From contig CAKONF010000004.1 of assembly GCA_934097015.1 (NCBI GenBank), positions 1 through 48,694 of the forward strand: 48,694 nt of DNA. Direction: 5' to 3'. The notes beneath the pieces are model-generated. The model did no database searches. It was not told the origin of the DNA and saw only the letters and a program-made list of their open reading frames with translations. Positions 2,495 to 42,802 of the stretch are shown piece after piece. Both the position numbers and the translations under genes were made by a program. Every line of letters begins with the position of its first letter. Positions within the stretch are counted from its first letter, which is position 1. This DNA is from an uncultured Bacilli bacterium. GTDB taxonomy: Bacteria; Bacillota_I; Bacilli_A; RF39; UBA660.

Positions 2495-2540
2495 AATTAA
2501 TTTGATAGACTTATTTAAATTTGATAAAATATAGTTAGAA

Positions 2541-5318: not shown

Positions 5319-5411
5319 ACTATCACCTATAATAAAATATTATCATAAATAAATAATTTAGTCTAGTAAATTAAGTTATTATTTGTTATTATATTTTCTG
5401 GAAGTGATAGT

Positions 5412-6596: not shown

Positions 6597-6782
6597 ACAA
6601 TAAATTTACCATAATAATAATGGTGATAATTTTGAAAAACAGAAAAATAAAAACTGAATTTAATTCGTTATATCCAACAAAAAATACAAATATTTACAAC
6701 CTATATGATAATTATAATTTAAAACAAAAAAAAGTAAATAAAGATGGATTTAATGAAATTACAAAAAATAAACATTTCAAAT

Positions 6783-11259: not shown

Positions 11260-11269
11260 GAGGAACAAT

Positions 11270-13427: not shown

Positions 13428-13600
13428 TTTACAATATTTACTAGTTTTGATATATTATATTTAAGGTAGAAATACCTAAAAACAAATTTTACGATTCATG
13501 AAAAAACAAGAAACATACTTCTTCCCCAACCCCAAAAATCGTTGGGGGGGGGGGTATAAAGAAATATGTTTTTTCGTGCAAATAAAGGAGTGTGAAAGAA
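13428..13600 (+). promoter_or_regulatory. Leader element copy B: promoter, GNRA hairpin and C-rich/G11 terminator-like hairpin abutting the RBS
   Basis: TTTACA(13428-13433)-17 nt-TATATT(13451-13456) with upstream TG. GGTA-GAAA-TACC at 13465-13476. ACATACTTCTT-CCCCAAC-loop-GTTGGGG... with G11 at 13544-13554, then AAGAAATATGT and TTTTTC (13570-13575). RBS AAAGGAG at 13584-13590. Near-identical to the copy at 48563. Confidence 0.65.
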
Positions 13601-18644: not shown

Positions 18645-18667
18645 TTTTATAGTAAAGGAAGATGTTT

Positions 18668-19567
18668 ATGAAAAATAATTCTAATAATAACAGAGGTTCA
18701 ATGATAATTTTAACTGTAATAGGTATTGCAACACTATTGGTTGCCGTAATAGGTGCAACATTTGCCTACTTTACAGCACAAATCAATTATAATGATAAAC
18801 CTAAGGAAGTTTATATTCATTCTGGTGAAATGATAGTACAATTTGATTCAAAAAATAGTATCGATTATAGGGGTGCTATTCCAGGAAGACCTGATGTTTA
18901 TGATGAAAGCGGTAATTTTATAAATAAAAATAGAATGCAATTTACACTCACAAGTGGAGAAAATATGGGTGTAGGTACAAAATATGATGTATATTTAAAA
19001 ATTACAAAAAATGAATTTACACAAAGTAATAAATTAAGTACTGGTCTTACTAATTTAGTTTATTATATTGAAGAATTCGAAGATAGTTTAAGAGGACCAC
19101 AGACAACTGGAACTGATAAAATTGGAAATCAACTAGGAACTATATATTCAACTAGTCCATTAATGGAATACAAAGATGCTACAACTAATCAAGGTAAATT
19201 TAAAAGAACAACTATAAATAGTATGTTAGATTCAGGAATAACTTTAAATGTTGGCGGAATAACTGAACCAAATGAAGTTGGTACAGTAAAAATTGGAACA
19301 ATTCCTATAAAAGCACAACCATCTACAACAGAAGATGATGGTTTCTGTACTGGAACTGGAATGGAAAAAAATGGAGATGCTTGTTTCTTAAAAATAAGTG
19401 AAGGATCTGTTTTAGGAAATTATAACAGTGCAAATGAATGGTATTTTGAATTATGGTTATATGAAACTGGAGATGAACAAAATTACGATCAAGGAAAAGA
19501 GTTCAATGCAAGTATAGAAATAGTTACACATGACTTAGACAAAATTTCTAATGAAGATGTTAGATAA
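18668..19567 (+). CDS. Stand-alone TasA/camelysin-like secreted protein with a SipW-type signal peptide
   Basis: IGIATLLVAVIGATFAYFTAQINYNDKPKEVYIHSGEMIVQFD resembles the TasA/CalY 'GGGTFAYFSD...AGTLDL' pattern. The C-terminal strand motif YFELWLYETGDEQNYDQGKEFNASIEIV matches the family's '..YEL.V.YKE.NEDQN.D..K..A...IV'. RBS AAGGA precedes ATG 18668; an alternative ATG lies at 18662. Confidence 0.8.
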   Translation: MKNNSNNNRGSMIILTVIGIATLLVAVIGATFAYFTAQINYNDKPKEVYIHSGEMIVQFDSKNSIDYRGAIPGRPDVYDESGNFINKNRMQFTLTSGENMGVGTKYDVYLKITKNEFTQSNKLSTGLTNLVYYIEEFEDSLRGPQTTGTDKIGNQLGTIYSTSPLMEYKDATTNQGKFKRTTINSMLDSGITLNVGGITEPNEVGTVKIGTIPIKAQPSTTEDDGFCTGTGMEKNGDACFLKISEGSVLGNYNSANEWYFELWLYETGDEQNYDQGKEFNASIEIVTHDLDKISNEDVR

Positions 19568-20301: not shown

Positions 20302-21021
20302 ATGATGAAAAAAATGAATAAAAGGGAACGTAGAAAAGTCTTTAGATATTATATTAATAGAGCAATGAAACTTCTTTCATACGCTGTAATAGTTGTACTT
20401 ATATTTTTAGGTATCTTTTTTGCATACTATTTTATATCTTTAAAATTATATGAGAAAAATCCAACAGTTAATATTCCTAAGTTCGGATTATACACAATAA
20501 TTAGTCCAAGTATGGAACCAAACGTAAAAGTATACGATGTCGTTGTTGATTTAAATATTTTTAATGAAGATGATGTAAAAAAAGGGGATATTATAACATT
20601 TGTCTCAAACAGTAATGTATCAAAAGGTTTAACTGTCACACATAGAGTAGTAGATATTATAACAAATAGCGATGGAAGTAAGTCATATATTACAAAAGGA
20701 GACAATAACTTAAAAGCAGACCAAGCTACTGTTAGTTATAAAGATGTATTAGGAAAAGTATTATTTAAAATACCTCAATTAGGTAGAGTACAGTTCTTAA
20801 TAGCAGATAAATTTGGATGGTTATTAGTAATATTAATACCAGCATTAGGAGTTATTATATATGATTTTATAAAATTATTTAGATTATTAGCATTTAATAA
20901 TAAATTTATGAGATTTAGTACAATAAATAAAAAAATAGATACAGAAATAGATGTCGATGATTTAAACCAAATAAGAGAAGGTTTAGATACAGTTAAAAGA
21001 TTCTATAATAGAAAGAATTAG
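20302..21021 (+). CDS. sipW: Archaeal/ER-type signal peptidase I (SipW-like)
   Basis: SPSMEP (nucleophile Ser), VTHRV (His), TKGDNN, and the extra C-terminal TM helix (WLLVILIPALGVIIYDFI) typical of SipW rather than P-type SPases. Confidence 0.8.
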   Translation: MMKKMNKRERRKVFRYYINRAMKLLSYAVIVVLIFLGIFFAYYFISLKLYEKNPTVNIPKFGLYTIISPSMEPNVKVYDVVVDLNIFNEDDVKKGDIITFVSNSNVSKGLTVTHRVVDIITNSDGSKSYITKGDNNLKADQATVSYKDVLGKVLFKIPQLGRVQFLIADKFGWLLVILIPALGVIIYDFIKLFRLLAFNNKFMRFSTINKKIDTEIDVDDLNQIREGLDTVKRFYNRKN

Positions 21022-27383: not shown

Positions 27384-27440
27384 GTTAATAATAAAACAAA
27401 AATTATATAATAATTATATATGATAAGGAGTAGATATCAA

Positions 27441-27983
27441 ATGACAAAGAAAGAAAAAATAATAGTTAGTACGGCAGGAATATTTTTAGTACTTTTAATT
27501 CTTGTAGGATTAACTTATGCGTACTTTTTAACAAGAATAAAAGGAAATACAAATGAAAAGAGTATAAGTGTATCGACAGCAAATTTAATATTAGAATACG
27601 CAGATATAGACGATATTGTTGTAGGTGGAGAAAATGTAGAACCAGGTACAACATGGACTAAAAAATTTAGTGCAACAAATAAAGGTAGTAAAAAAGTAGA
27701 ATATGGTGTGGCACTAGAAAATGTTTTAAATACATTAGAAAGAACAAAAGACTTAGTATATACGTTAAATTGTACCAGTAGCTTAGGGACAGATTGTAAT
27801 AAAGTAGAAACAGAACAAGAGTTTCCTGTAATAGGAACAATATTAATAACAAATAACATAGAACCAGAAGAAGTACAAAGTTATGAACTAATAGTTTCAT
27901 ATAAAGAACAAAATGAAGATCAAAATGTTGATATGAATAAAAAAATATATGCAAAGGCAAATATAGTAGATCCAAAAACATTT
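27441..27983 (+). repeat. 543-bp direct repeat shared with 29313..29855 (N-terminal domain cassette)
   Basis: The first 181 codons of the two tandem genes differ at 13 aa positions by my hand count. Similarity stops abruptly after 'IVDPKTF'. Confidence 0.85.
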
Positions 27984-29300
27984 AATGTATATGAAAAATC
28001 TCAGTTAAATAATATTATAATTGCAAGTGCACGTAATGCAAGTAATAATAGTGATAGTAAAAGAACTTCTTATGGTAGTGAAATAACTGCATTTGATTCT
28101 ATTACATGGACTAAATATTATGATGAATTTACAACTTCATATGAAGAAACTAATCCAAGTATAACGTATTGGCAAATAGCAGATACATTTAATGATATAG
28201 AAAATAATAATACAACAAAACCAACTACAATAACAGAAGCAGTTGGAAAATATATAAATATTTCGTATCCAGACTATAAAATAGTATTTTTAGAATCATA
28301 TAATGAAACAACTCAAGTTGCAACATTTAAAAATTTAAAAGTTGAATATGAAAAAGTTTTAAACAATGCTCCAGATGATTATGGAACAAGTTATTATTAT
28401 AGAGGAAATCCCCAAGATAATTATGTATCATTTGCAGGATTGGTATGGAGAATAGTAAGAATAAATGGAGATGGAACTGTAAGAATAATATTAGATGATG
28501 AAGGAATAAAAACAGCATTTAATAGCTATGAAAATGTTTATGCAGATAATGCTGGAGTAGGATATATGTATGGAACACCAGGAAGTGATACATATTTAAA
28601 AACACACGAAAATATTAATAGTAGTACTGTTAAACAAGTCCTTGATTCTTGGTATGAAGAAAATATAGAAAACAATACATTACATTATGAAAAGTATTTA
28701 GCAGATACATTATTTTGTGGTGATAAATCATTAGCAGATAAAGATTTAGTTCAAAATGATGGAACTGGTCTAGGTTATGGAAAAAATAAAACATATTATA
28801 AAAAAACAGAAAATTCTATAAAATTAGTCGAAAATGTTTTAACATTAAAGTGTGCTAATTATGAAGATAATAATTATTCAAAGTACACATCAAAGCTTGA
28901 AAATAATACAACTATAAACGACAAAATAAATATTAATAATGATCTAAAACATCCTATAGGACTAATATCGTTTGATGAAGTGGTATACGCTGGATTTAAT
29001 GGAAAAACTCCATACGGTTTTAATTATGGATATTATTTATATAGAACAGATTTTGTTAATTATGTGTTCTGGAGTATGACACCTTCAGTTATGGTGGATG
29101 ATAATACTTATGTATATACATTTAATAAAAATATTAATTTTGCAACAACTGTTTCAAAAGAAGAAATATTAAACCAACGTTTAAATACAATAATTGAATA
29201 TAGAGCTAGACCAGTAATAAATTTACGTTCAGACTTATTAATAAGTAGTGGAGATGGAACAGAAACAAATCCATATCAAGTAAAATTGCCAACAGAATAG
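27441..29300 (+). CDS. Secreted surface protein, family member (first of a tandem pair)
   Basis: RBS AAGGAG. MTKKEKIIVSTAGIFLVLLILVGLTYAYFLTRIKGNTNEKSISVSTANLILEY. SFAGLVWRIVRINGDGTVRIILDD. ARPVINLRSDLLISSGDGTETNPYQVKLPTE*. Confidence 0.9.
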   Translation: MTKKEKIIVSTAGIFLVLLILVGLTYAYFLTRIKGNTNEKSISVSTANLILEYADIDDIVVGGENVEPGTTWTKKFSATNKGSKKVEYGVALENVLNTLERTKDLVYTLNCTSSLGTDCNKVETEQEFPVIGTILITNNIEPEEVQSYELIVSYKEQNEDQNVDMNKKIYAKANIVDPKTFNVYEKSQLNNIIIASARNASNNSDSKRTSYGSEITAFDSITWTKYYDEFTTSYEETNPSITYWQIADTFNDIENNNTTKPTTITEAVGKYINISYPDYKIVFLESYNETTQVATFKNLKVEYEKVLNNAPDDYGTSYYYRGNPQDNYVSFAGLVWRIVRINGDGTVRIILDDEGIKTAFNSYENVYADNAGVGYMYGTPGSDTYLKTHENINSSTVKQVLDSWYEENIENNTLHYEKYLADTLFCGDKSLADKDLVQNDGTGLGYGKNKTYYKKTENSIKLVENVLTLKCANYEDNNYSKYTSKLENNTTINDKININNDLKHPIGLISFDEVVYAGFNGKTPYGFNYGYYLYRTDFVNYVFWSMTPSVMVDDNTYVYTFNKNINFATTVSKEEILNQRLNTIIEYRARPVINLRSDLLISSGDGTETNPYQVKLPTE

Positions 29301-29312
29301 GAAGTGAATTAA

Positions 29313-29855
29313 ATGACAAAGAAACAGAAAATAATAGTAAGTACGACAGGAATATTCCTAGTACTTTTAATTCTTGTAGGATTGACTTATGCATATTTCT
29401 TAACAAGAATAAAAGGAAATGAAAATGAAAAAAGTATAAGTGTATCAACTGCAAACTTAATATTAGAATATGCAGATATAGATGACATTGTTGTAGGTGG
29501 AGAAAATGTAGAACCAGGCACAACATGGACTAAAAAATTTAGTGCAACAAACAAAGGTAGTAAAAAAGTAGAATATGGTGTAGCATTAGAAAAAGTTGTA
29601 AATACTTTAACGAGAAGATCGGATTTAGTATATACGTTAAATTGTACTAGTAGTTTAGGGACTACTTGTAATAAAGTAGAAACAGAACAAGAATTTCCAA
29701 TAATAGGAACAATACTAATAACAAATAACATAGAACCAGAAGAAGTACAAAGTTATGAATTAATAGTTTCATATAAAGAAATGAATGAAGATCAAAGTGT
29801 TGATATGAATAAAAAAATATATGCAAAGACAAATATAGTAGATCCAAAAACATTT
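29313..29855 (+). repeat. Partner of the 543-bp direct repeat at 27441..27983
   Basis: See 27441..27983. Confidence 0.85.
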
Positions 29856-31193
29856 GGGGCATTAGGAAGTGGAACACTTGCTAGTGCCTTAGTTGAAAGT
29901 GCAAAAACTGCTGCTGCTTCAAATGATCAAATAAGAACAATTTATAAAGAAGTTCCATTAACTAGTCCTGGAAATGAAATTAGTATAACTAAATACAAAA
30001 CAGAAAATGAAAGTGGAATAGAATTTAATACAGAAGAAGAATTTTCTATAGAAGAACAATATCAAAATTATTATTGGACTTATGCTACAGGTTATAGTGT
30101 TGATGAAACTACAGGAAAAATGTCCTTAAATAGTCCAACTGTTTCAGAAAAACAATATAATTCTATGTATAATGAATTAGTTGGAAAATATATAGCTTCA
30201 TCTACAATACCTAACAACTGTAAAGAAACCCAAATTATAGCAGAAAACACCAAAAATTTAAATAATATATACAAAATCACATCAGCAACCAATTCTAAAT
30301 TAACAGTAAAAAGAATTATACCCACTGCTATTAGTCAAGAAAAAACTTTATCTTTGAGCGAAGATGATTATGGATTAAGTTATTATTTTAGAGGTGGTAT
30401 TGTAGATAATTATGTTAATTTTGCAGGAATGTGTTGGAGAATAGTCAGAATTCAAGGAGATGGAAGTGTCAAAGTAGTTTTGGAAGACAAAAATACAACG
30501 TGTGAATCAAATCAGTATACTGGTAATTGGAATTATTCAAAAGTTAATTTTGGATATGATTACACTAATGGAAAAGATAGAATTCCAGCATTTTTAAATC
30601 CTATTACTGAAAAAGAAACTGCATTAGCTACAAAAGCAGAGGAATTTCAATCTGAATTGGATAAAAAAATAAAACAAACATATGGAGAAAATGAAAGCAA
30701 TTCATCTAAATTAAAAGCAGGAGATTGGTGTTTAACAGAAAAAATATATAATTCTTACTATACAACAGCGGGTTTAAGACTATGGAAAGATGATACAAGA
30801 TATGCATCAAATATTTGTGATGGCACAAAACTAACAAATTTTTATGATAATAAAGATATGTATGTTGCTACATTGACTGCAGATGAAATAGTTTTTTCAG
30901 GGACGATAGTAATATCAAACGATAGCATTCATAATGTTTATAACACAAGTCATTATCTATTTAATGATTATATGTTAGAATTAGAAGACAAAAGTTCATT
31001 TAAATATTATACACTAACATATAGCAGTAAATTAGTTTATTATAGAGTATTTACCGTAGCAGTTCCAGGATTTATTGTCCCACAAATGGCAAACTTTGGA
31101 GAAATAGATTTTAGACCAGCAATAATTTTATCCTCAGATACACAATTATTAAGCGGAAATGGATTAAAAACAAACCCATACGAAATAAAATAA
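29313..31193 (+). CDS. Secreted surface protein, family member (second of the tandem pair)
   Basis: Start lies 12 nt after the previous stop, RBS GGAAGTGA. Same N-domain. NFAGMCWRIVRIQGDGSVKVVLED, GDWCLTEK and FRPAIILSSDTQLLSGNGLKTNPYEIK*. Confidence 0.9.
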   Translation: MTKKQKIIVSTTGIFLVLLILVGLTYAYFLTRIKGNENEKSISVSTANLILEYADIDDIVVGGENVEPGTTWTKKFSATNKGSKKVEYGVALEKVVNTLTRRSDLVYTLNCTSSLGTTCNKVETEQEFPIIGTILITNNIEPEEVQSYELIVSYKEMNEDQSVDMNKKIYAKTNIVDPKTFGALGSGTLASALVESAKTAAASNDQIRTIYKEVPLTSPGNEISITKYKTENESGIEFNTEEEFSIEEQYQNYYWTYATGYSVDETTGKMSLNSPTVSEKQYNSMYNELVGKYIASSTIPNNCKETQIIAENTKNLNNIYKITSATNSKLTVKRIIPTAISQEKTLSLSEDDYGLSYYFRGGIVDNYVNFAGMCWRIVRIQGDGSVKVVLEDKNTTCESNQYTGNWNYSKVNFGYDYTNGKDRIPAFLNPITEKETALATKAEEFQSELDKKIKQTYGENESNSSKLKAGDWCLTEKIYNSYYTTAGLRLWKDDTRYASNICDGTKLTNFYDNKDMYVATLTADEIVFSGTIVISNDSIHNVYNTSHYLFNDYMLELEDKSSFKYYTLTYSSKLVYYRVFTVAVPGFIVPQMANFGEIDFRPAIILSSDTQLLSGNGLKTNPYEIK

Positions 31194-31868: not shown

Positions 31869-33107
31869 ATGACTACAATAGGTATTATTGGAGCTATGCA
31901 AAATGAAATTGATAAATTAATAAGCTACTATGATTTAAAAAAAGATAAAATGAATAAAGATATTTATGTTAGTGAATTTAATGACAAAAAAATAGTAGTA
32001 GCAATGAGTGGAGTAGGAAAAGTAAATAGCGCTGCAATGACCCAGTATATTATTGATAAGTATAATGTTGATGCAATAATAAATTCAGGAGTAGCAGGTG
32101 GTATTAATAATAAATTACATGTTATGGATATAATTATATCAAATTATATTACATATCATGACTTTAATCCAAAAACAATAATGGAATCATATGTTCCAAA
32201 TAGAGGAAAAATAGAAGCAAATAAAACTTTAATTGATATCGCAAAAAAAGTAGTTAAAGATATGAATATAACTAACGCTTACTTTGCTCCTATGTGTAGC
32301 GGTGATAGTTTTGTACAAGATGAAAAATTAAAACTAGAAATTTTGTTAAATACAGGTGCTTGTTGTGTAGATATGGAAAGTGCTTCAATCGCTCATACTT
32401 GTTCTTTAAATAGCATTCCTTTTATATCAATTAGAACCATATCGGATATGGCAAATGGAGGAGAATACTATGAAGATATAGCAGCATATAAATCAAGTGA
32501 ATTTGTAGTAAAACTAGTAAGTGAAATATTTATATATTTAGCCAAATTTGCTAAAAAAGAAGATAATATATACTTATATACTCCAAAATATAATGAACTA
32601 GATTACTATAAAAACATATTATTAGATCCAAAGACAATGGAATACAATGCAGGATATAATTTAAACTTAGATGGTTATGAATATGAAACAGGATGTGTAA
32701 AAACATTTGATGAAGAAAAATGGTATAAAAAACAAATTCTTGATAGAAATAGATACTTTGCTTACATAATAGATAAAGTTGATAATTTACCTGTAGGATA
32801 TGTAAATTTTCATTTTGATGAATTAAAATTAAAACATACATGTGGAATAATAATAGAATATAAATATAGAAATAAAGGATATGGAACAAAAGCATTACAA
32901 AACTTATTAGATAAGGCTTTTAATGAATATAATTTAAATAGCTTAACATGTTCTATTCCATATAAAAATACAAAAACATTAAAATATTTTATGAATAATG
33001 GTTTCAAAGATATAAAAGAAGATTATTATATAAAACGTTTTAATAACAATGAAAGATATATTACATTAGAATATACTAAAGATTCTTATAATAAGAATAT
33101 AAAGTAA
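31869..33107 (+). CDS. mtnN: Fusion protein: MTA/SAH nucleosidase (MtnN/Pfs) N-domain + GNAT acetyltransferase C-domain
   Basis: IGIIGAMQNEI, MSGVGKVNSA, NSGVAGG and CVDMESASIAH are Pfs-like. Residues ~235-412 carry the GNAT core IIIEYKYRNKGYGTKALQNLLDKAF. Confidence 0.75.
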   Translation: MTTIGIIGAMQNEIDKLISYYDLKKDKMNKDIYVSEFNDKKIVVAMSGVGKVNSAAMTQYIIDKYNVDAIINSGVAGGINNKLHVMDIIISNYITYHDFNPKTIMESYVPNRGKIEANKTLIDIAKKVVKDMNITNAYFAPMCSGDSFVQDEKLKLEILLNTGACCVDMESASIAHTCSLNSIPFISIRTISDMANGGEYYEDIAAYKSSEFVVKLVSEIFIYLAKFAKKEDNIYLYTPKYNELDYYKNILLDPKTMEYNAGYNLNLDGYEYETGCVKTFDEEKWYKKQILDRNRYFAYIIDKVDNLPVGYVNFHFDELKLKHTCGIIIEYKYRNKGYGTKALQNLLDKAFNEYNLNSLTCSIPYKNTKTLKYFMNNGFKDIKEDYYIKRFNNNERYITLEYTKDSYNKNIK

Positions 33108-34040: not shown

Positions 34041-34914
34041 TATAGATATACTAACTAAAATTTATAAACCATATAAAGTTAGTGTTAAAGGTAATACAAA
34101 AATATTTAATTGTACTACTGGAAATTATGTTATTAAAAATAAAAAAGATAAAAACATAAAAGAATTATACAAATATCTAAATAGTAGAAGTTTTAAATAT
34201 TATCCAAAACTTATAGAAGATAATAGAGATGAAGTTAATGTATTTGAATATGTAGAAGATAATAGTATTGACAATGAACAAAAATTAATGGATTTAATTA
34301 ATCTAATAAGTTTATTACATAGTAAAACCAGCTATTACAAAGAAATAACTAACGATAAAATAAAAGAAATATATGAAGAATTATTAGGCAGAGTAGAATA
34401 TATGGAAGAGTATTTTAATAAAATAATATTTGAAATAGAAGACAATGTTTTTCCAAGTCCATCAGGTAATTTAATATTAATTAATTCAAATAAAATATTT
34501 TCTTCATTAATATTTTTAAAAAAAGAAATAGAAGAATGGTATAAAATAAGTATGGATAGTAATAAAATGAGAGTATCAATAGTACATAATAATTTAGAAT
34601 TAGATCATTATATAAAAAATGAAAACGAATACTTAATTAGTTGGGATAATTATATTATAGATAGCCCCATATTAGATATAGTAAAATTATATAAAAATGT
34701 ATACTTAACAATGGAATTTTCAAATCCTCTTAAATTATATATGGATAAATTTCCTCTAAATGAAGATGAAAAAAAATTATTATTTATAATGTTAGTAATG
34801 CCAGATGAAATAAATTTAACAGACAATGAAATAAAAAACATTGCTATCGTTAGAAAATATTTAGATTATATTTATAAAACAGAAAACTTAATTAGGCCAT
34901 ATTATTCTAAATAA
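34033..34914 (+). CDS. ysxE: CotS/YsxE-family spore coat protein (kinase-like fold)
   Basis: Overlaps the spoVID-like stop, as in the B. subtilis spoVID-ysxE operon. HNNLELDHYI is an HxDxxxxN-like motif of CotS/aminoglycoside-kinase-like proteins. Confidence 0.6.
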   Translation: MNSIDILTKIYKPYKVSVKGNTKIFNCTTGNYVIKNKKDKNIKELYKYLNSRSFKYYPKLIEDNRDEVNVFEYVEDNSIDNEQKLMDLINLISLLHSKTSYYKEITNDKIKEIYEELLGRVEYMEEYFNKIIFEIEDNVFPSPSGNLILINSNKIFSSLIFLKKEIEEWYKISMDSNKMRVSIVHNNLELDHYIKNENEYLISWDNYIIDSPILDIVKLYKNVYLTMEFSNPLKLYMDKFPLNEDEKKLLFIMLVMPDEINLTDNEIKNIAIVRKYLDYIYKTENLIRPYYSK

Positions 34915-35076
34915 TATAAAGAATAACAAGAAGACTTCTATAAGTAATATAAAAACATTAAATCTAAAAGGTAAAATTAAAGTAATAATAGTTTGATAAA
35001 ATATTAAACAAGATAAAATTAATACCCAAAACAAACTAAAAAAACCTCTAAAAAAATTATTATTGTTATTACACAT
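34888..35076 (-). CDS. Possible small membrane protein
   Basis: AGGTGA RBS 6 nt before the ATG. Two hydrophobic helices. Its 3' end overlaps the convergent ysxE-like gene by 27 nt. Confidence 0.3.
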   Translation of the reverse strand: MCNNNNNFFRGFFSLFWVLILSCLIFYQTIITLILPFRFNVFILLIEVFLLFFILFRIIWPN

Positions 35077-35173
35077 AGTATCACCTAATATAGTTTATGA
35101 AAATAAGCAATTTATTGTTTATTTTTTTTATTGTTTATGATATTATTTAATAGTAAAAGAATAGAGGGTAATT

Positions 35174-36493
35174 ATGAAAAAGAAGATAATATTATTAATA
35201 TTTTTATTTATTCCATTTATTAAAGTAAATGCATTAAATTGTTATAAGAACGAAATAGATATAACAAAAGTAGATAATTTTCCATGTTATAATGTAGGAA
35301 GTGATAAATTAACATTTTCTTATAATGATGAAGATTATTCAAAATATTTTAATTATTCAATTGATAGTGGAGAAAATGGTAAAGAAGCAACAATTACATT
35401 AGATAAAAATTTATCATTTGATTCTGCTTTCGAAAAAGGATTTATAATTATATCAGATGGAACAGATAAAGCAACTATAACAGTTAAAAATAAGGCATAT
35501 GTTAAAACTACGAAACAAGAAGAAACAACAACTACTACTAAAGACGTAACAAAAAAAGAAATAACTGTAATATTAGATGATGGAAATAATAAAAAAGAAG
35601 AAAAATGTACAATATCATCAGGACAAACATATTGTAATATAACGCTTCCAAAACTTGATGTTGAAGGCTTTACTGGATGGGGTACAGCTAGTACATGTAA
35701 AGAAGGAAGTATTGGCTCTACAAAAGTAGAAAAGAATATTACATATTATGCATGTAATGAAAAAAATAGTAATACTGAAACATCAAACACAATATATTTA
35801 AAAACATTAAAATTAACTAACAAAGATACAAATGAAGAAATAAAAATAGGAACATTTAGTATAAAAAAAACAGAATATGAAATAAAAGTATTAAATGATG
35901 TAGAAAACATAAATGTAGAAGCAACTAGTGATGAAAACGTAAAAATTGATATTACAGGAAATGAAAACTTAAAAGTTGGAGAAAATGCAATAATAATCAA
36001 ATTAACAAATGATTCTAATGAAACAAATGAATATAAGATTAAAGTTAATAGATTAAATGTTGGAGAAACTATATCTAATATACATTACTTAAAAAGTTTA
36101 GTAATAGGTGGAGAATATAATATAAATTTCAATAAAAATACATTTAATTATACAATAACTATCCCTAATGAAATTACTAAATTAGAAATTACACCAGTTG
36201 TAGAAAATACTTCTGATAGATATGAAATACTAAATAATACTAATTTAGTAAACGGATCTATTATTAAAATAAATGTTATAGGAGATAACAATGAAACTAC
36301 TACTTATAACATAAATATAGTAAAAGAAAAACAAATTAATTATTTAATATATATAGGTTTAGGTGCTGTTTTACTATTAATAATAATACTAATAATATTA
36401 ATAATAATAAAATCTAATAAAAAGAAAAAGAATAATATATCTCCAAAAACATTAAATAATAATAGAAATGATATAGAAGTATTAAATATCTAA
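35174..36493 (+). CDS. Cell-surface protein with cadherin-like beta-sandwich repeats and a C-terminal TM anchor
   Basis: Signal peptide (LLIFLFIPFIKVNA). Two 'YLK(T/S)L...EY.IKV...I.V.A' modules typical of the cadherin-like beta-sandwich domain. C-terminal TM helix followed by KKKKNN. Confidence 0.7.
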   Translation: MKKKIILLIFLFIPFIKVNALNCYKNEIDITKVDNFPCYNVGSDKLTFSYNDEDYSKYFNYSIDSGENGKEATITLDKNLSFDSAFEKGFIIISDGTDKATITVKNKAYVKTTKQEETTTTTKDVTKKEITVILDDGNNKKEEKCTISSGQTYCNITLPKLDVEGFTGWGTASTCKEGSIGSTKVEKNITYYACNEKNSNTETSNTIYLKTLKLTNKDTNEEIKIGTFSIKKTEYEIKVLNDVENINVEATSDENVKIDITGNENLKVGENAIIIKLTNDSNETNEYKIKVNRLNVGETISNIHYLKSLVIGGEYNINFNKNTFNYTITIPNEITKLEITPVVENTSDRYEILNNTNLVNGSIIKINVIGDNNETTTYNINIVKEKQINYLIYIGLGAVLLLIIILIILIIIKSNKKKKNNISPKTLNNNRNDIEVLNI

Positions 36494-36502
36494 TTTTGTT
36501 TA

Positions 36503-36531
36503 TTGATTACTTTAATATATTTTGATATAAT
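36503..36531 (+). promoter_or_regulatory. Near-consensus sigmaA promoter of the four-gene McrB-like operon
   Basis: TTGATT(36503-36508)-17 nt-TATAAT(36526-36531) with a TG extension. Confidence 0.5.
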
Positions 36532-36558
36532 CATTTTAGAATAGAAAAGAGGTTTAAG

Positions 36559-37686
36559 ATGAAAGATATAATTGATGAGTATATAGATATATCAAAAAAA
36601 CATCTTAATACTATACTTATAAATTTAGAATCTAATATAGAATTTTTAGATAATAATTTATGGAAAGATAGTAATGAGTTTAAAAACTTAGTAGCTGATA
36701 TAGTTAATATATATTATGACAAATATTATTTATATAATAGTAATGATTTTAAAATAATAGATAAATATATAAAATTTAATAATAAAATCAATAGAAAATT
36801 AAAAACAATTATATTATCTATAATAGAATATTTTGAAAAAAATCAAATAGAAAATAAAATAGAAAAAGATGAAGAATCAATTCTTTACTTAACAATATTA
36901 ATATATTTGAGTTTAATATTATATGAAAAAGACTATAACTTAATTGATACACCAAAAAAGATAGAAAAAGAAATAAATAATGTTATAGATAACTTTAGAG
37001 ATATAAGATTTAAAAGAGAAAAAAATCTATTTGATTTAATAAATAATATAAAAGACATAATAATATCAAATAATAATTTTAATAAGTTAATAAACAAATT
37101 AAATACTAAAGATAGTCATAACTATTTTATAAAAATAAATAATAAATTAAATCTTTATAAAGTAATATATGAATATGATATAAAAGAACTTAATGATTAT
37201 AATGAATTAGATATTAATATAGTAAATAATAAAATAAATATTACAAATATTTTAAATGGAATATCTTATGATTTAGCATATTTTACAGCATTTAAAATGT
37301 TAAAAAATGGAATCAATAATATATTATTATTTAAAATAAGCAAAGAAGAAATATTAAATGATAAAATTTTAGATTACATGACAAAAAGAAATAAAAAAAT
37401 AAATGATAATATAAAATTTTTAATAGATTATGAAGATATAAAAAATAATTACGAATTAGTAAATAAAATAAAAGATAAAGGTATTGATATTTACATAGAA
37501 ATAAATAAAGTGATAGAAACAGATAACTATAATATGTTTATGGATATAAATAATGTTATAGTACCAGAAGAATTTCTTAGTTTAAATGAAAAATATGTAG
37601 AGATATGGAAAGACATGAATATGAATTTCATAATAAAAGATTTAAAAGATAAAGTAGAAGAAAAAAATCTATTAATTAGAAAGTGA
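36559..37686 (+). CDS. Hypothetical cytoplasmic protein, first gene of the McrB-like operon
   Basis: RBS AAGAGG. 375 aa, N/K/I-rich, no TM helix and no motif I recognise. Stop overlaps the next gene. Confidence 0.65.
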   Translation: MKDIIDEYIDISKKHLNTILINLESNIEFLDNNLWKDSNEFKNLVADIVNIYYDKYYLYNSNDFKIIDKYIKFNNKINRKLKTIILSIIEYFEKNQIENKIEKDEESILYLTILIYLSLILYEKDYNLIDTPKKIEKEINNVIDNFRDIRFKREKNLFDLINNIKDIIISNNNFNKLINKLNTKDSHNYFIKINNKLNLYKVIYEYDIKELNDYNELDINIVNNKINITNILNGISYDLAYFTAFKMLKNGINNILLFKISKEEILNDKILDYMTKRNKKINDNIKFLIDYEDIKNNYELVNKIKDKGIDIYIEINKVIETDNYNMFMDINNVIVPEEFLSLNEKYVEIWKDMNMNFIIKDLKDKVEEKNLLIRK

Positions 37687-37694
37687 GTGTTAGT

Positions 37695-39191
37695 ATGAAT
37701 AATTATGGTAAATTTTTTGTTGATTTTTTAACTCCTTTTTTTGAAGGACTAGTATCTATTTTTAAATCTCTATTTAAAGGAATATTTGAAATGTTAAATA
37801 TTGTTAAATATGGAGAGATAATTGAAAAATATAAAGGAACAGTAAATACTGTATTCGTCATAATATCTATTATATGTTTAATATTATTATTAGGATTATT
37901 TGCATATTTAGTATATTATATAATAAAGAAAATAATGAAAGTTGTTAGAAAAAGTCACGAACAAGATTCATTACTTGAAGAAGTTGAAAAACTTAATTAT
38001 GATATGATTAAACTAAAACAAGAAAATGATAAATTAACTACAATGGCAGAAAATGCTGGTGGTGAATTAGATGAAAATGGAAATCCTATCACAAAAATTG
38101 GTAAGGGTGAAAGTAGATTCTATAAATTAAGTAAATTAGATGCAGAATGGGCTAATTACAAACCAGAAAAACCATTTGAAAACAATTTAACATTAGAACA
38201 AATATGTGATAGATTCAGAAATTATTCAGCAAGTGTTTTAGGATTATACTATACACCAGATTTAATTAGATTATTTATATCAGCTTTTGGAGCAAGTAGA
38301 CTATTAATATTACAAGGTATATCTGGTACAGGTAAAACTTCTCTTGCATATGCATTTGGACATTTTTTAGGAAATGACTCTGTTATTGCACCAGTACAAC
38401 CATCTTGGAGAGATAGAACAGAATTATTTGGATATTTCAATGAATTTACAAAAAGATTTAATGAAACAGAATTATTAAGTAAAATGTACGAAGCTACATA
38501 TAATGATAAAATATATGTTACAATACTAGATGAAATGAATATAGCACGTGTAGAATATTACTTTGCAGAAATGTTATCAATTATGGAAATGCCATCAAAA
38601 AAAGAATGGGTTGTTAACTTAGTTGCAACACCATGGGAAAGTGATCCTAAAAAAATAGTTAATGGTAATTTTACATTACCAGGAAATATGTGGTATATAG
38701 GAACAATTAATAACGATGACTCAACATTTATGGTTACAGATAAAGTTTACGATAGAGCAATGCCTATTGATATAAATGAAAAATGTGCTAAATTTGATGC
38801 ACCTAAAACTGATGGTATAAATATTAGTGATGAATATTTTGAAAAATTATTTGATGAAGCGCTAGAAAAATATCCAGTTAGTAGTGAAATGTTAAAGAAA
38901 TTAGATGAATTAGACCAATATATAATAGAACACTTTAGAATATCATTTGGTAATCGTATTATGAGACAAATAAATGATTTTGTTCCAGCATATGTTGCTT
39001 GTGGAGGAAAAGAAGTTGATGCAATAGATTACCTAATAGCAAGTAAAATATTAAGAAAATTTGAACAATTAAATTTAGCATTCATAAAAAATGAATTAGA
39101 TGAATTTATCAATTACTTAAATGTACATTTTGGAAAAGAAAACATGAATAAATGTAAAGATTTCATATTAAGATTAAAAAAATCTATGTAG
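37695..39191 (+). CDS. Membrane-anchored, coiled-coil McrB-family AAA+ GTPase
   Basis: TM helix VFVIISIICLILLLGLFAYLVYYII followed by KK. Coiled coil (LLEEVEKLNYDMIKLKQENDKL). Walker A LQGISGTGKTS. Walker B ILDEMNIARVEYYFAEMLS. McrB-type GTINNDDST...DKVYDRA (NxxD). An alternative GTG start lies at 37683. Confidence 0.8.
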   Translation: MNNYGKFFVDFLTPFFEGLVSIFKSLFKGIFEMLNIVKYGEIIEKYKGTVNTVFVIISIICLILLLGLFAYLVYYIIKKIMKVVRKSHEQDSLLEEVEKLNYDMIKLKQENDKLTTMAENAGGELDENGNPITKIGKGESRFYKLSKLDAEWANYKPEKPFENNLTLEQICDRFRNYSASVLGLYYTPDLIRLFISAFGASRLLILQGISGTGKTSLAYAFGHFLGNDSVIAPVQPSWRDRTELFGYFNEFTKRFNETELLSKMYEATYNDKIYVTILDEMNIARVEYYFAEMLSIMEMPSKKEWVVNLVATPWESDPKKIVNGNFTLPGNMWYIGTINNDDSTFMVTDKVYDRAMPIDINEKCAKFDAPKTDGINISDEYFEKLFDEALEKYPVSSEMLKKLDELDQYIIEHFRISFGNRIMRQINDFVPAYVACGGKEVDAIDYLIASKILRKFEQLNLAFIKNELDEFINYLNVHFGKENMNKCKDFILRLKKSM

Positions 39192-39198
39192 GTGAGTT

Positions 39199-40290
39199 AT
39201 GTTAAAGAATATAACAGATGTAATGAATAATATTAATGTTAGTGATCTAGATAATTTTATATCAAATACAAATGCAAATTTTATGTGTATATCAGATATA
39301 AAAGAAACAAAAATAGATTACAATTGGTTAAATGTATTAGAAGATACATTACCAAATCTAGACAAAATAGTTAGAAATCCAAGAAGATTTATAGTTCAAG
39401 AAGAAGATGTTGTTATAGTTGAAAAAACAAAAAGAGTTTCACAAGAAACAATAAAACATTTAGCACAACATTGTGAAAATATACAAGATATAGATGAAAA
39501 TGGAGATGTAGTTCCAAAAAAATTACTAAACGTACATAAAGAAGATACAACAGATTTATATGAAAACAGATTTATATATACACTAGTATTAAGATTAGAG
39601 TCATTTATAAATAGACAATTAGAAAACTTAGAATTAGTTAGCAACAAAGAAGTAAAAAAAACTATAAGTTATAAAGCAGAAACTAACATAAAAAACAAAA
39701 AAATTAACATAGAACTTAAAATGAATGAAGAAGATAAAATAGATTTAAATGAATATGGTAGTGATTATAAAAATAGAATACTTGCTTGTTATGATGTAAT
39801 AAGTGGATTCAGAACTACAGAAATGATAAAAGAATTAGTAGGATGTAGCTTAGTAAAAAATCCCATAAGAAAAACAAATCTTATACTAAGACAACCTGAT
39901 TTCCAAAAAGCATTTGTATTATGGCAATACTTAGATAACTTTGAATATAAAGATCCTAAAGTAGTAAGCTTTGATAGAATTACAAATAATAGCAAAGAAA
40001 CTAAAGACGAATTTACACTAGGATATTTCATAGATAGCAATGCAGTTGATGAGAAACATGAAAACCTAATGAAATATAGAAATATAGATGCTAAATTAAA
40101 TAAATTATTAAATGACTATGTATATGAAGATGAACAAAATATAGAACAATTTTTAATAACTACAAAAAAATATTACGAACAAGCATTAACTGATAAACAA
40201 AATAGACAAAATAATATAATAAATATTTATAATCAATTTATAAAAAAACATAAAGATAATATTAATGAAATAAAAGAATTATTGAATTAA
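39199..40290 (+). CDS. McrC N-terminal/DUF2357-like partner protein without a recognisable nuclease domain
   Basis: 'DLYENRFIYTLVLRLESFI' matches the (T/D)xxENRF motif I associate with DUF2357/McrC-like proteins. 'LRQPDFQKAFVLWQYL' resembles their conserved '..Y..ly.lW..L'. I could not find a D...(D/E)xK motif in the C-terminal 100 aa. Confidence 0.55.
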   Translation: MLKNITDVMNNINVSDLDNFISNTNANFMCISDIKETKIDYNWLNVLEDTLPNLDKIVRNPRRFIVQEEDVVIVEKTKRVSQETIKHLAQHCENIQDIDENGDVVPKKLLNVHKEDTTDLYENRFIYTLVLRLESFINRQLENLELVSNKEVKKTISYKAETNIKNKKINIELKMNEEDKIDLNEYGSDYKNRILACYDVISGFRTTEMIKELVGCSLVKNPIRKTNLILRQPDFQKAFVLWQYLDNFEYKDPKVVSFDRITNNSKETKDEFTLGYFIDSNAVDEKHENLMKYRNIDAKLNKLLNDYVYEDEQNIEQFLITTKKYYEQALTDKQNRQNNIINIYNQFIKKHKDNINEIKELLN

Positions 40291-40308
40291 TGATAAGGAG
40301 AGTATATT

Positions 40309-41607
40309 ATGGCAAAAAAAGATAATAAAAAAAAGAAAATAAAAAGATTATCTAAATCGGATGTAAAGACAACAATAATAAAACTTGAAGATTTAGAAAA
40401 ATTAAGCGTTGAAGATCAAGAAAAATTATTTGAAGATACATTTGACAAAATATACTCTGGTGAAGAAATAGAATCATTAAGAAAATATTCCCTTAGATGT
40501 ATCAAATTAACTTGTGATCCTAAAGATAATAAAATACATTTACCATATGGAGTGCTAGTACAAAAAAAAGGTAATGAAATAATAATAAAAGTATATCAGA
40601 ATAGACATTGGTTTTTAATAATGTTATTCTTAACACTATTAGCACTTGCTATAGTAGGAGCAAGTTATTCTGCAGTAAATTATAAAATAATACAAAATTT
40701 AAATAAAGATATAGATGGTGATGGAATACCTGATATAAATTTAGATTTAAATAATGATAGAGTTGCTGAAGTAAATGTAGATACAAATAATGATGATAAA
40801 CCAGATGTTAATATAGATTATAAAGGAAATAGAAAAGCTACATTTAATATTGATACAGATAATGATGGAATACCAGATTTTAATTTAATGAATCAAGACA
40901 CAGATAATGATGGAGTTTGCGATATAAACTGTGATATAAATGGAGATGGATGGCCTGATATCAACCTAGATCTAGATGGAGATGGAAAAGTTGATATGGA
41001 AATAGATACGGATAAAGATAAAAGAGCAGATTTAAACTTCGACATGAATGGTGATGGAATATGTGATCTACACTGTGATACAACAGGCGATTTAAAATGT
41101 GATAAATATTGTTTAAAGAGTGAAGATTTAGAAAATGTAGATCCAAGCAATAGCGGAAGCAGTAAAAATGTAGGTAATAAAGATTACTCCGTAAAAGCAG
41201 GAGAATTAGTATTAGAATATGAAGATGATAACACAGTATTTATTGAAAATATATACCCTGACGATCAACCATATTATAATGGAAAAGTACCTCCAAAGAG
41301 ATTCAAAATAACAAATAAATCATCAATATTTATAAAATATAATTTAAAATGGATAATAACTGAAAATAACTATTTAACAGATAATTTTAAATATAGCATT
41401 ACAAGTACAAATAATGGAGTTAATTTTGATTTTAAAACAGCTCCTAAAGAAGATTCAGTTATAGCAACTAGTATAATAATTCCACCAAATACAACACAAG
41501 ACTATGAAATGAATTTCAAATTACAAGGAACTGGTGGAAAACAAAATGAAGATCAAAATAAAACATTTGCAGGACATGTAGAAGTATATTTAGATAATGA
41601 ATATTAA
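40309..41607 (+). CDS. Single-pass membrane protein: cytoplasmic N-domain, TM, thrombospondin-type-3-like Ca-binding repeats, Cys-rich segment, C-terminal TasA-like beta-sandwich
   Basis: TM helix WFLIMLFLTLLALAIVGASY. About 10 D-x-D-x-DG-x-x-D units (DIDGDGIPDINLD, DTDNDGIPDFN, DINGDGWPDINLD, DLDGDGKVDMEID...). C-terminus ELVLEYEDDN...KRFKITNKSS...QDYEMNFKLQGTGGKQNEDQNKTFAGHVEV aligns with the family N-domain. Confidence 0.8.
   Translation: MAKKDNKKKKIKRLSKSDVKTTIIKLEDLEKLSVEDQEKLFEDTFDKIYSGEEIESLRKYSLRCIKLTCDPKDNKIHLPYGVLVQKKGNEIIIKVYQNRHWFLIMLFLTLLALAIVGASYSAVNYKIIQNLNKDIDGDGIPDINLDLNNDRVAEVNVDTNNDDKPDVNIDYKGNRKATFNIDTDNDGIPDFNLMNQDTDNDGVCDINCDINGDGWPDINLDLDGDGKVDMEIDTDKDKRADLNFDMNGDGICDLHCDTTGDLKCDKYCLKSEDLENVDPSNSGSSKNVGNKDYSVKAGELVLEYEDDNTVFIENIYPDDQPYYNGKVPPKRFKITNKSSIFIKYNLKWIITENNYLTDNFKYSITSTNNGVNFDFKTAPKEDSVIATSIIIPPNTTQDYEMNFKLQGTGGKQNEDQNKTFAGHVEVYLDNEY
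40708..41106 (+). repeat. Coding tandem array of Asp-rich Ca-binding-type repeats
   Basis: Residues ~134-266 of the 40309 protein. Periodic GAT/GAC-rich ~33-39-nt units are visible in the DNA. Confidence 0.7.
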
Positions 41608-41617
41608 AATATAGTAT

Positions 41618-42403
41618 TTATCCCAATACTATATCTAATATCATCATTAAACTAAAACCTAAAATAGTTATAAAGGCCATAAGGTCTTTTTTTTCTGTAT
41701 TTTGACTTTCTGGAATTATTTCTTCTATAACAACATATAACATAGCACCAGCAGCAAATGCAAGTAAATATGGAAGAACAAATTTAACTTTTAAAACTAA
41801 TATAGCTCCAATTACAGCAGAAATGGGTTCAACAATTGCAGATAAACTTCCAATAATAAATGCCTTTTTTTTAGACATACCACTACCTAGTAATGGTAAA
41901 CTTATTGCGCTACCTTCAGGAAAGTTTTGAATACCAATTCCAATAGCAAGAGTTATAGCAGCACCAACTGTAGCACCATCTAAACCATAAATTACAGAAC
42001 CAAAAGCAACACCTACTGCCATACCCTCTGGAATATTATGGAGTACTATAGAAAATATTAATAAACTAATTCTTTTTTTATCCTCTTTTAGTTCCATTTT
42101 GCTAGAAAATATCTTATCACCAATAAAAAGAAGCAAAGTTCCACCAATAATACCAACCACAAGAACATTTATAGGAACAAGATTTAAATTGCTAGCCATT
42201 TCCATTGCTGGATTTATAAGAGAGAAAAATGATGCACTAATCATTACACCTGCAGAAAAACTCAAAAAAACATCTAATAAAGCCTTATTTGATTTTTTAA
42301 ATAAAAATACACTAGCAGATCCAAAAGTTGTAATTAAAAATGTAAATAAAGATGCAACTAAAGCTTGTAATGCAGGATTTAAATTATAAAAAAAATTTAA
42401 CAT
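41618..42403 (-). CDS. zupT: ZIP-family divalent metal transporter (ZupT-like)
   Basis: HNIPEGMAVGVAF and QNFPEGSAISLPL signature helices. 8 TM helices. Confidence 0.85.
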   Translation of the reverse strand: MLNFFYNLNPALQALVASLFTFLITTFGSASVFLFKKSNKALLDVFLSFSAGVMISASFFSLINPAMEMASNLNLVPINVLVVGIIGGTLLLFIGDKIFSSKMELKEDKKRISLLIFSIVLHNIPEGMAVGVAFGSVIYGLDGATVGAAITLAIGIGIQNFPEGSAISLPLLGSGMSKKKAFIIGSLSAIVEPISAVIGAILVLKVKFVLPYLLAFAAGAMLYVVIEEIIPESQNTEKKDLMAFITILGFSLMMILDIVLG

Positions 42404-42448
42404 ATAAATTCACCTAATATATTAAATGTTAAATTTAAAAATATGTTA

Positions 42449-42802
42449 TTATTTTATTTTATTATTTATACCTATCATAGAACCAAATACTGTACTAATA
42501 ACTAAAATAACATAATATATAAGAGTATTAATATTTAAAGAATATTTAAATATTAAACTTATTAACAATAAAATAATTATAGAAAAGATAGATAACAATA
42601 AACCATTTAAATATCCATTCTTTTCAGTCTTTTTACCTAGTACAAGTCCGATAACAAACATTAATATAGAACCAATAATTATTACAATTATTTTATTAGT
42701 TTGCAATTTAAATAAATTAAAAATAGTTAAAAATATTGGTATAATAATTATAGAAGATAAAAATATTAATAAAGATTTAATAAACTTTTTAAAAAAATTC
42801 AT
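42449..42802 (-). CDS. Small membrane protein (possibly TIGR04086/YrzE-like)
   Basis: Three or four TM helices. G-rich helix IIGSILMFVIGLVLGKKTEKNGYLNG. Confidence 0.5.
   Translation of the reverse strand: MNFFKKFIKSLLIFLSSIIIIPIFLTIFNLFKLQTNKIIVIIIGSILMFVIGLVLGKKTEKNGYLNGLLLSIFSIIILLLISLIFKYSLNINTLIYYVILVISTVFGSMIGINNKIK

Follow-up and report, generated by a model that had tools for sequence, protein, structure and literature searches.

McrBC is the textbook GTP-dependent restriction motor, and the part of McrC known as DUF2357 activates McrB. McrBC systems were surveyed by Bell et al. 2024 (eLife, PMC11090510), and a large clade within the NxD branch was named CoCoPALM. According to the main text of this survey, the GTPase of CoCoPALM is fused to an FtsB-like domain composed of a transmembrane (TM) helix and a coiled coil, coiled coils are usual on both the McrB and the McrC homologues, the systems are associated with signal peptidases, and McrC homologues of the coiled-coil branch often have no nuclease. 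In that text CoCoPALM takes up one paragraph with no analysis of its components, which is deferred to a future paper. Our literature search found no later paper that uses this name or links McrB to TasA or SipW; an apparent match for McrB together with TasA, SipW or membrane turned out to be an E. coli strain genotype. Here we describe an operon of four genes (i–iv) located in the 48,694-nt contig CAKONF010000004.1 of an uncultured Bacilli bacterium (assembly GCA_934097015.1), the whole of which was analysed and is called below the window. Probably this operon is a McrBC-derived GTPase module that has neither DNA recognition nor nuclease and works at the membrane together with TasA-like proteins processed by the signal peptidase SipW. 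A first-pass annotation of the same DNA took such a configuration to be undescribed, which has to be withdrawn since CoCoPALM has been named.

The four open reading frames (ORFs) lie head to tail between positions 36559 and 41607 and are indeed as tightly packed as was first noticed, with junctions of −4, +7 and +18 nt (i/ii, ii/iii and iii/iv, respectively):

36559–37686, + strand: gene i, 375 amino acids (aa)
37683–39191, + strand: gene ii, 502 aa from GTG, probably 498 aa from ATG at 37695
39199–40290, + strand: gene iii, 363 aa
40309–41607, + strand: gene iv, 432 aa

Homologues of gene ii begin at MNNYG and are 498 aa long, and the true start of this gene is therefore probably the ATG at position 37695. 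Its N-terminal 186 aa are made of a conserved amphipathic segment (aa 1–55), one TM helix (aa 59–77, nt 37857–37913), a coiled coil of 3–4 heptads (aa 97–118) and a linker. They contain no modified-DNA reader domain, and no DNA-binding family of Pfam or NCBIfam was matched in this part of the protein. The stretch KKIMKVVRK directly follows the TM helix, and under the positive-inside rule this predicts a cytoplasmic location of everything C-terminal to it. The GTPase domain occupies approximately aa 187–380 and carries Walker A (GISGTGKT, 212–219), Walker B (LDEMN, 282–286) and the signature NNDD (343–346). Both Walker motifs are invariant in 22 lineages. The longer string GTINNDDSTFM is kept in 21 of the 22 aligned lineages, the remaining one (L016 in our numbering) having GTANNDDSTFA, with the NNDD core invariant throughout. 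Among solved structures E. coli McrB was the sole relative (E = 8e-6 in the PDB sequence search), in agreement with the initial description of a McrB-like protein where a TM helix and a coiled coil replace the DNA reader. Matches to NCBIfam McrB (E = 1.8e-6) and Pfam AAA_5 (E = 1.2e-3) were both below the cut-offs. A HMMER search with gene ii collected 735 clusters (50% identity) at E ≤ 1e-30; some of these relatives are about 500 aa long and have the same architecture, and many, 550–920 aa in length, carry multi-TM segments or long coiled coils in their N-terminal part.

The motifs of gene ii had been interpreted as Walker A, Walker B and an NxxD GTP-specificity motif. The Walker motifs were recovered as proposed, but the third assignment needs correction. 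The signature runs N343-x-D345 followed by D346, and 14 relatives show N-x-D-[D/E/Q]-S-T. Because this pattern fits the description of the NxD branch, in which NxD is strictly conserved and is usually followed by E or a second D (PMC11090510), we read the signature as NxD(D) and not as NxxD, even if the ungapped phmmer alignment with the NTAD motif of the E. coli protein also allows the latter reading. Judging from its sequence, gene ii is thus a membrane-anchored McrB-type GTPase of the NxD branch.

The partner of this GTPase, gene iii, matches Pfam DUF2357 (PF09823) with E = 1.4e-11 and 44.6 bits against a gathering score of 23.3, and precomputed assignments place DUF2357 in all 120 of its listed homologues. 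The motifs YENRFIY and LWQYLD, in which ENRF and LW.YL had been recognized at the outset, are conserved across the family. The conserved core of the protein spans aa 1–175, a long β-hairpin takes up aa 149–182, and the C-terminal tail (aa 187–362) is almost entirely helical. In the AlphaFold2 model (predicted local distance difference test score, pLDDT, 77; predicted template modelling score, pTM, 0.48) long helices are seen at aa 290–310 and 315–362. An alignment of 38 sequences has its conserved residues clustered at aa 20–136 and 219–242, and past residue 130 only P222, T226, N227, I229, L241 and W242 are invariant, with no acidic residue and no Lys triad among them. Foldseek comparison of the model with PDB gave nothing below E = 0.01, and its matches to TolC, CapZ and kinesin were rejected as noise produced by long helices and hairpins. 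The gene iii profile had no match among PDB sequences, and hhalign detected no similarity to E. coli McrC; since these two comparisons were empty, it is Pfam DUF2357 only that links gene iii to McrC. Both Foldseek and the PDB profile being empty, no PD-(D/E)xK fold was found, and such a nuclease was equally missing from the Pfam matches, the alignment and the AlphaFold2 model. The proposed DUF2357-like partner devoid of nuclease was thereby borne out.

Gene iv is a predicted bitopic N-in membrane protein with Ca-type repeats outside. Its N-terminal domain (aa 1–100), assigned to the cytoplasm, is basic (24 Lys+Arg) and conserved. It is followed by a TM helix (aa 101–119) within a SipW-type signal-anchor (aa 101–123) that ends with GASYSAV, by Asp/Asn-rich repeats with six DxDxDG motifs and conserved paired Cys (aa ~130–270), and by a β-sandwich of the TasA/camelysin type (aa ~291–431). 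BLASTP found aa 287–417 to be 31% identical to the N-domain of 626-aa surface proteins encoded in the window, which pass Pfam Peptidase_M73 (camelysin/TasA) with 24.1 bits at a gathering score of 22.5. Because direct Pfam and PDB profiles gave nothing significant, homology of gene iv was demonstrated through the in-genome family of SipW-dependent pilin-like proteins of ~200 aa, for which the comparison set was taken from related loci. Its C-terminal domain aligned with this family by hhalign with probability 98.8 and E = 4.9e-17 over 133 columns, and 6 of 11 of those pilin-like proteins match Peptidase_M73 (best E = 1.9e-6). The TM helix, too, could be matched in register to the SipW-type signal peptide that the pilin-like proteins carry (GA(T/S)Y of gene iv against GATFAYF; hhalign probability 88, E = 2.9e-6), a score that may be inflated by compositional bias of TM segments. 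Thus, with its N-domain, signal-anchor and TasA-like domain, the protein looks like a TasA-like pre-protein bearing a 100-residue cytoplasmic extension. A single-pass protein with Asp-rich Ca-type repeats and a TasA-like sandwich, as it had been characterized before, is what these comparisons recovered.

The window is rich in proteins to which this ectodomain is related. At least six of its genes combine a SipW-type signal peptide (VG[AL]T[FY]AYF) with a TasA/camelysin-like N-domain, and the organism invests heavily in this SipW-dependent surface family:

1–1494 (partial): TasA-like gene
6843–8891: TasA-like gene
13592–15526: TasA-like gene
18662–19567, + strand: TasA-like secreted protein, 301 aa, signal peptide IGATFAYFT (TIGR04088, E = 0.011, below cut-off)
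20302–21021, + strand: archaeal-type (SipW-type) signal peptidase I (NCBIfam TIGR02228, E = 1.5e-27, above cut-off)
27420–29300 and 29313–31193, + strand: tandem TasA-like genes for 626-aa surface proteins, each with a SipW-type signal peptide and a TasA/camelysin-like N-domain

The tandem 626-aa paralogues, 44% identical overall and nearly identical over their first ~170 aa, stand closer to the ectodomain of gene iv than any other protein of the window. The 301-aa protein has the C-terminal motif EQNYDQGKEF in common with gene iv. The peptidase gene at 20302–21021 adjoins the gene of this 301-aa protein and that of a 198-aa membrane protein, and the three together look like a small tapA-sipW-tasA-like cluster. 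This SipW is likely the processing enzyme for the TasA-like family and can be considered a candidate partner of the operon.

For gene i the earlier statement that it has no recognisable domain held at the level of sequence, where no match was found in Pfam, NCBIfam and PADLOC, but not at the level of fold. Its structure was predicted by AlphaFold2 from a 16-sequence alignment (pLDDT 88.4, pTM 0.84), and in the model the protein is soluble, with an N-terminal helical domain followed by a degenerate EAL-like (β/α) barrel at aa ~150–375. Nearly all of the top 50 Foldseek matches in PDB were EAL domains, for most of which the probability was ~1.00 (E from 3e-4 to 7e-2, target-normalised TM-score ~0.5 over ~210 columns); they include Bd1971, RocR and MorA as well as the degenerate EAL domains of FimX and LapD, which bind cyclic di-GMP (c-di-GMP). 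Pfam EAL was not matched at E ≤ 1, and none of the catalytic motifs (EAL/EVL, DDFGTG, EGVE) was found. Only Y8, N188 and S236 are invariant across 23 sequences. The profile of gene i had a single match among PDB sequences, an AI-designed TIM barrel, which is compatible with a β/α barrel but is not evidence by itself. According to the model, gene i therefore consists of a helical N-domain and an EAL-like domain that is degenerate and non-catalytic, and the search for a nuclease fold, extended to this gene, revealed an EAL-like and not a PD-(D/E)xK structure. GGDEF/EAL sequence motifs were sought in 1,225 locus proteins and none was found, an absence that we consider uninformative on c-di-GMP signalling. 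Gene i is the fastest-evolving member of the operon, with ~20% identity between deep lineages, and orthology of its near and far versions was established by hhalign (probability 99.9, E = 3.9e-34).

Conservation of the cluster was studied in two steps of different depth. A scan of genome collections with the single gene ii sequence returned 12 close genomes, a count that is not a measure of prevalence because the scan depends on exact peptide patterns. All 12 are species-level metagenome-assembled genomes (MAGs) of uncultured 'Bacilli'/'Tenericutes' in which the order i-ii-iii is kept, 10 of them also having gene iv, and tblastn found no gene iv in L007 and L012. In one close lineage (L007 and L020) gene iv is missing, and gene iii is followed by a gap of 540 nt (~8600–9135 in L007) and then by topA, which may be a real loss or a join in MAG assembly. 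A scan of metagenomes with the gene iii profile added 80 further loci. Proteins from 100 sources (99 loci and the window) were then clustered into 37 lineages at 85% gene iii identity, and most of them have the layout i-ii-iii-iv of the window, designated type A. Co-occurrence of the four genes, which the first-pass annotation had proposed to verify by a neighbourhood survey, is thus a property of the majority of lineages. Across 19 aligned lineages the four-gene order is conserved with gene iii down to ~37% identity. Compared with 14 distant type A lineages, the genes of the window are identical by 54–62% (gene ii), 39–46% (gene iv), 37–42% (gene iii) and about 20% (gene i).

In the other layout, type B, a ii-iii pair without genes i and iv is flanked directly by SipW-type peptidases and several proteins with SipW-type signal peptides of the A(Y/W)F kind. 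It was seen in L016, L078, L089 and L093, whose type B counterparts are 52–55% identical to gene ii, and also in L102, L103 and L104, together with L101 that has no SipW, where the identity is only 37–43%. The McrB-like gene of L016 (8001–9941, 646 aa) has the C-terminal half of its GTPase domain duplicated internally, and its DUF2357 partner (10035–12581, 848 aa) carries a crescentin-type coiled coil; gene iii relatives of L016, L101 and L103 are proteins of 668–848 aa with coiled-coil tails. A conserved membrane protein of 230–274 aa accompanies type B loci (5876–6568 in L078, 5890–6654 in L089 and 5167–5991 in L016). Its match to PDDEXK_2 (E = 0.0018, below the gathering score) is probably noise and is the sole nuclease-like signal near these systems.

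Throughout the family, no gene outside the core recurs as a neighbour as often as SipW does. The SipW gene lies within four genes of the ii-iii pair in 11 lineages, 4 of type A and 7 of type B, and all 10 SipW-type peptidases tested had archaeal/SipW models as their best match, 8 of them above the cut-off. The type A loci where SipW and pilin-like genes occur within four genes are L013, L023, L066 and L079. Downstream of the cluster L013–L015 have two pilin-like genes of 197 aa, a SipW fusion (385 aa) and a DUF5305 protein. Immediately upstream of it, at ~2500–6350, L014 and L015 have a HerA/FtsK-like DUF87 ATPase (582 aa) and a TasA-like protein of 679–692 aa; in L013 the DUF87 ATPase alone was called there. 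Several type A clusters reside inside the dcw region, in the arrangement RsmH-FtsL-PBP ... i-ii-iii-iv-PBP-MraY-FtsW-MurG-FtsQ (PBP, penicillin-binding protein), which was seen in L017, L064, L067, L076 and L077 and partly in L018. L067, which with 38 near-identical contigs is the lineage met most often in human gut, has an IS3-like transposase pair (4995–6094) between the dcw PBP and the cluster. The operon of the window has housekeeping genes as neighbours, all members of the family that have a name are 'Bacilli bacterium' MAGs, the 2.9 million viral contigs of IMG/VR yielded no relative of gene iii, and phage and plasmid collections contained only distant GTPase-domain matches to gene ii (≤39% identity). 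The cluster thus behaves as a stable chromosomal resident.

Based on these data a role in surface fibres or pili is favoured over a role in defence. The only extracytoplasmic domain of the operon belongs to the same fold family as the SipW-dependent secreted proteins of the organism, SipW recurs beside the cluster more than any other non-core gene, nothing nuclease- or toxin-like is present while PADLOC perceives only the AAA+ core of gene ii, and the cluster resides stably in the chromosome. Of two hypotheses put forward initially, the SipW/TasA-like flanks and the homology of gene iv favour the one in which an AAA+ motor acts on TasA-like fibres and gene iv anchors them in the manner of TapA. 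Gene ii is held in the membrane by its one TM helix, and its coiled coil and intact NxD GTPase should be exposed to the cytoplasm. By analogy with McrBC structures (Nirwan 2019; Niu 2020) it may form a hexameric ring, into which gene iii would insert to stimulate GTP hydrolysis. The GTPase cycle could be passed to gene iv through the cytoplasmic 'handle' of the latter or through TM helices, and could in this way gate or drive nucleation, anchoring or release of SipW-dependent TasA-like fibres; both steps are suggested by genomic context. Close to the membrane, gene iv may serve, as TapA does, as the base at which TasA-like subunits are nucleated or anchored. If FimX and LapD are taken as models, gene i may be a regulatory or adaptor subunit, possibly sensing a nucleotide. 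The complete scheme, where TasA-type fibres are built or anchored on a GTP-driven ring exapted from McrB/McrC, coupled through gene iv and regulated by gene i, is offered as a tentative one.

Several observations speak against this assignment, which we infer entirely from genomic context. The only SipW of the window is 15 kb upstream of the operon and not adjacent to it, and only four type A lineages carry SipW within four genes. The argument from co-localisation with TasA-like genes is weakened by their multiplicity in each genome, which does not affect SipW. Gene iv and 15 of its orthologues had no Pfam or PDB-profile match, so its link to TasA is indirect. The pTM of the gene iii model is low, and a sensor role of gene i is speculative because it has no conserved ligand-binding or catalytic residues. 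Similarity of gene ii to FtsB/DivIC is weak (Pfam DivIC at aa 69–119, E = 0.014), and its coiled coil and GTPase would face the cytoplasm, in a topology reversed relative to FtsB. Finally, McrBC ancestry and the PADLOC match described below leave some weight to a function in defence.

Defence was the other initial hypothesis. If the operon were an anti-phage or abortive-infection system, its GTPase would sense infection, perhaps through the ectodomain of gene iv, and trigger a membrane or some other effector. Descent from McrBC, a Type IV restriction system, is in line with it, as are the predicted defence role of the related CoCoNuT systems, the fast evolution of genes i and iii, the presence of insertion sequences (IS) or recombinase genes near a few loci, and the match of gene ii to PDC-M26A, a component of the PADLOC candidate system PDC-M26, with E = 1e-39. 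This match, however, covers the AAA+ part alone (aa 187–309), nothing in genes i, iii and iv is recognized by PADLOC, and the system is incomplete, so membership in PDC-M26 was rejected. Genes i, iii and iv also contain neither a nuclease nor a recognisable effector, gene ii is very strongly conserved (54–62% across deep lineages), the contexts are of housekeeping or dcw type instead of defence islands, close relatives were not found in phage, plasmid and IMG/VR collections, and linkage to SipW and pilin-like genes is systematic. Taken together this makes defence unlikely.

The position of several clusters inside the dcw region admits a different explanation, in which a DivIC/FtsB-like membrane segment with its coiled coil would bring the GTPase to the divisome or to peptidoglycan synthases. 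The weak DivIC match of gene ii, the name FtsB-like given to the fused domain by Bell et al. (PMC11090510), and neighbouring envelope genes for PrsA-like proteins and YfhO are compatible with such an accessory function in cell division or cell-wall synthesis. Yet the positive-inside rule would put the coiled coil and the GTPase of gene ii in the cytoplasm, on the side opposite to the extracytoplasmic coiled coil of FtsB/DivIC. Adjacency to dcw is seen neither in the lineage of the window nor in any type B locus and could be inherited synteny, and the TasA-fold ectodomain of gene iv together with the linkage to SipW would be left unexplained. We regard this explanation as improbable. Equally doubtful is a processing or extraction machine, where the GTPase would pull the handle of gene iv or leftover SipW-type signal-anchors, presenting them to SipW or clearing them after cleavage: AAA+ rings commonly extract or unfold substrates, gene iv joins a cytoplasmic domain of ~100 aa to a SipW-type signal-anchor and SipW is adjacent in many relatives, but in solved McrBC complexes the pore of the McrB ring is reportedly occupied by McrC with no threaded substrate (Nirwan 2019; Niu 2020), and type B loci have no gene iv-like protein with a long cytoplasmic handle.

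The usual view of TasA-type fibres, formed by donor-strand exchange, is that they assemble by themselves outside the cell and need no source of energy, and we know of no NTPase that takes part in their assembly. If the scheme of a fibre-associated GTPase ring is true, it would be the first NTPase-powered machine for assembly or anchoring of this pilus class and a clear case of recruitment of a restriction enzyme motor to cell-surface biogenesis. If the assignment is right, it also provides a testable four-protein model for nucleation or anchoring of Gram-positive TasA-like fibres, with a possible regulatory input through the EAL-like subunit. The McrB/McrC motor and activator devoid of nucleic-acid-handling parts form here a conserved chromosomal cluster in a large group of uncultured Bacilli of human and animal gut, and a component-level description is thus supplied for CoCoPALM, so far only named. 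For annotators of defence systems the locus calls for caution, as the PADLOC match of gene ii alone would mislabel it.

Sites of possible importance for expression of the operon were searched for in its surroundings, with two candidates registered:

36503–36531, + strand: promoter-like site TTGATT–17 nt (with TG)–TATAAT, top score within the 65-nt gap upstream of gene i
41672–41689, + strand: terminator-like hairpin with T-run, 65 nt past the stop codon of gene iv, within the 3' end of a convergent ZIP-family gene

A ribosome-binding site AAGAGG ends at 36552, 6 nt ahead of the ATG of gene i. The promoter described earlier as near-consensus is present at the expected place but gains no statistical support: the sigma-70 scan of this AT-rich DNA found 66 promoter-like sites with 80 expected from shuffled sequences. 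Since such sites are as common after shuffling, the promoter of gene i is plausible but is not evidence in itself. The terminator scan was likewise not above chance, with one such site in 34800–42600 and about one expected. An Rfam scan of the window and five loci found no c-di-GMP or other riboswitch near the operon. In L013 it registered the PGK RNA motif (RF03040) at 6588–6680 with 58 bits against a gathering score of 50.8, in the intergenic region ~170 nt upstream of the gene i orthologue; this motif is absent from the window and from the four other loci scanned.

The window itself has a GC content of ~23% and reads as ordinary chromosome, encoding also TruB, ThiI, TyrS-like, GlyS, RluD-like and LspA-like proteins and two tRNAs. 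Just upstream of the operon (35174–36493) there is a gene whose product of 439 aa combines a classical signal peptide, a Cadherin-like β-sandwich and a C-terminal TM anchor; other lineages do not keep this gene beside the cluster. On the minus strand, three antisense ORFs were noticed that are each exactly 114 aa long (27515–27859, 29387–29731 and 32551–32895). Two of them oppose the duplicated 626-aa genes and the third one opposes an unrelated gene for 412 aa (31869–33107).

Comparison with known systems shows which parts of the operon have precedents. With canonical McrBC (EcoKMcrBC of E. coli and the system of T. gammatolerans) it shares the AAA+ GTPase core, Walker A and B, the Asn/Asp signature and the order in which the GTPase gene is followed by an adjacent activator gene. 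It differs in having no DNA-reader domain, in its membrane anchor, in NxD instead of NxxD, in a partner without PD-(D/E)xK and in a setting other than restriction. CoCoNuTs (CnuB/CnuC) belong to the same NxD branch, their McrC homologues often have no active nuclease, and many GTPase relatives of gene ii resemble them in long N-terminal coiled coils; however, CoCoNuTs are soluble systems in which extensive coiled coils always occur together with other nucleases or RNA-binding domains, and the operon shows none of these features.

On the side of surface structures, the TapA-SipW-TasA system of Bacillus subtilis and archaeal bundling pili offer a SipW-type peptidase, secreted subunits of the TasA/camelysin fold and a membrane-proximal accessory protein with a related fold, a place held there by TapA and which gene iv may hold here. 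Unlike TapA, gene iv has a cytoplasmic domain of 100 aa and Ca-type repeats, and its resemblance to TasA itself does not go beyond the Pfam family. Degenerate EAL proteins of the FimX, LapD and YkuI type provide a parallel to gene i, as they retain the EAL fold without catalytic residues and are tied to a pilus or adhesin machine, whereas gene i has no sequence-level EAL signature, no conserved residues for contact with c-di-GMP and no GGDEF, PAS or HAMP partner domain.

The closest likeness is to CoCoPALM as outlined in the main text of Bell et al. The operon combines an NxD McrB fused to a TM helix and a coiled coil with a DUF2357 partner that has a helical tail, no nuclease is present and the family is associated with SipW; L016, L078, L089 and L102–L104 agree with what was published in each of their genes. 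The SipW gene of the window lies 15 kb off rather than adjacent, and two components unmentioned in the published main text are added, the EAL-like gene i and the TasA-domain signal-anchor protein of gene iv. By its features, rather than by phylogeny, the operon can with fair probability be assigned to the CoCoPALM class outlined there, in which it possibly represents a distinct four-gene subtype.

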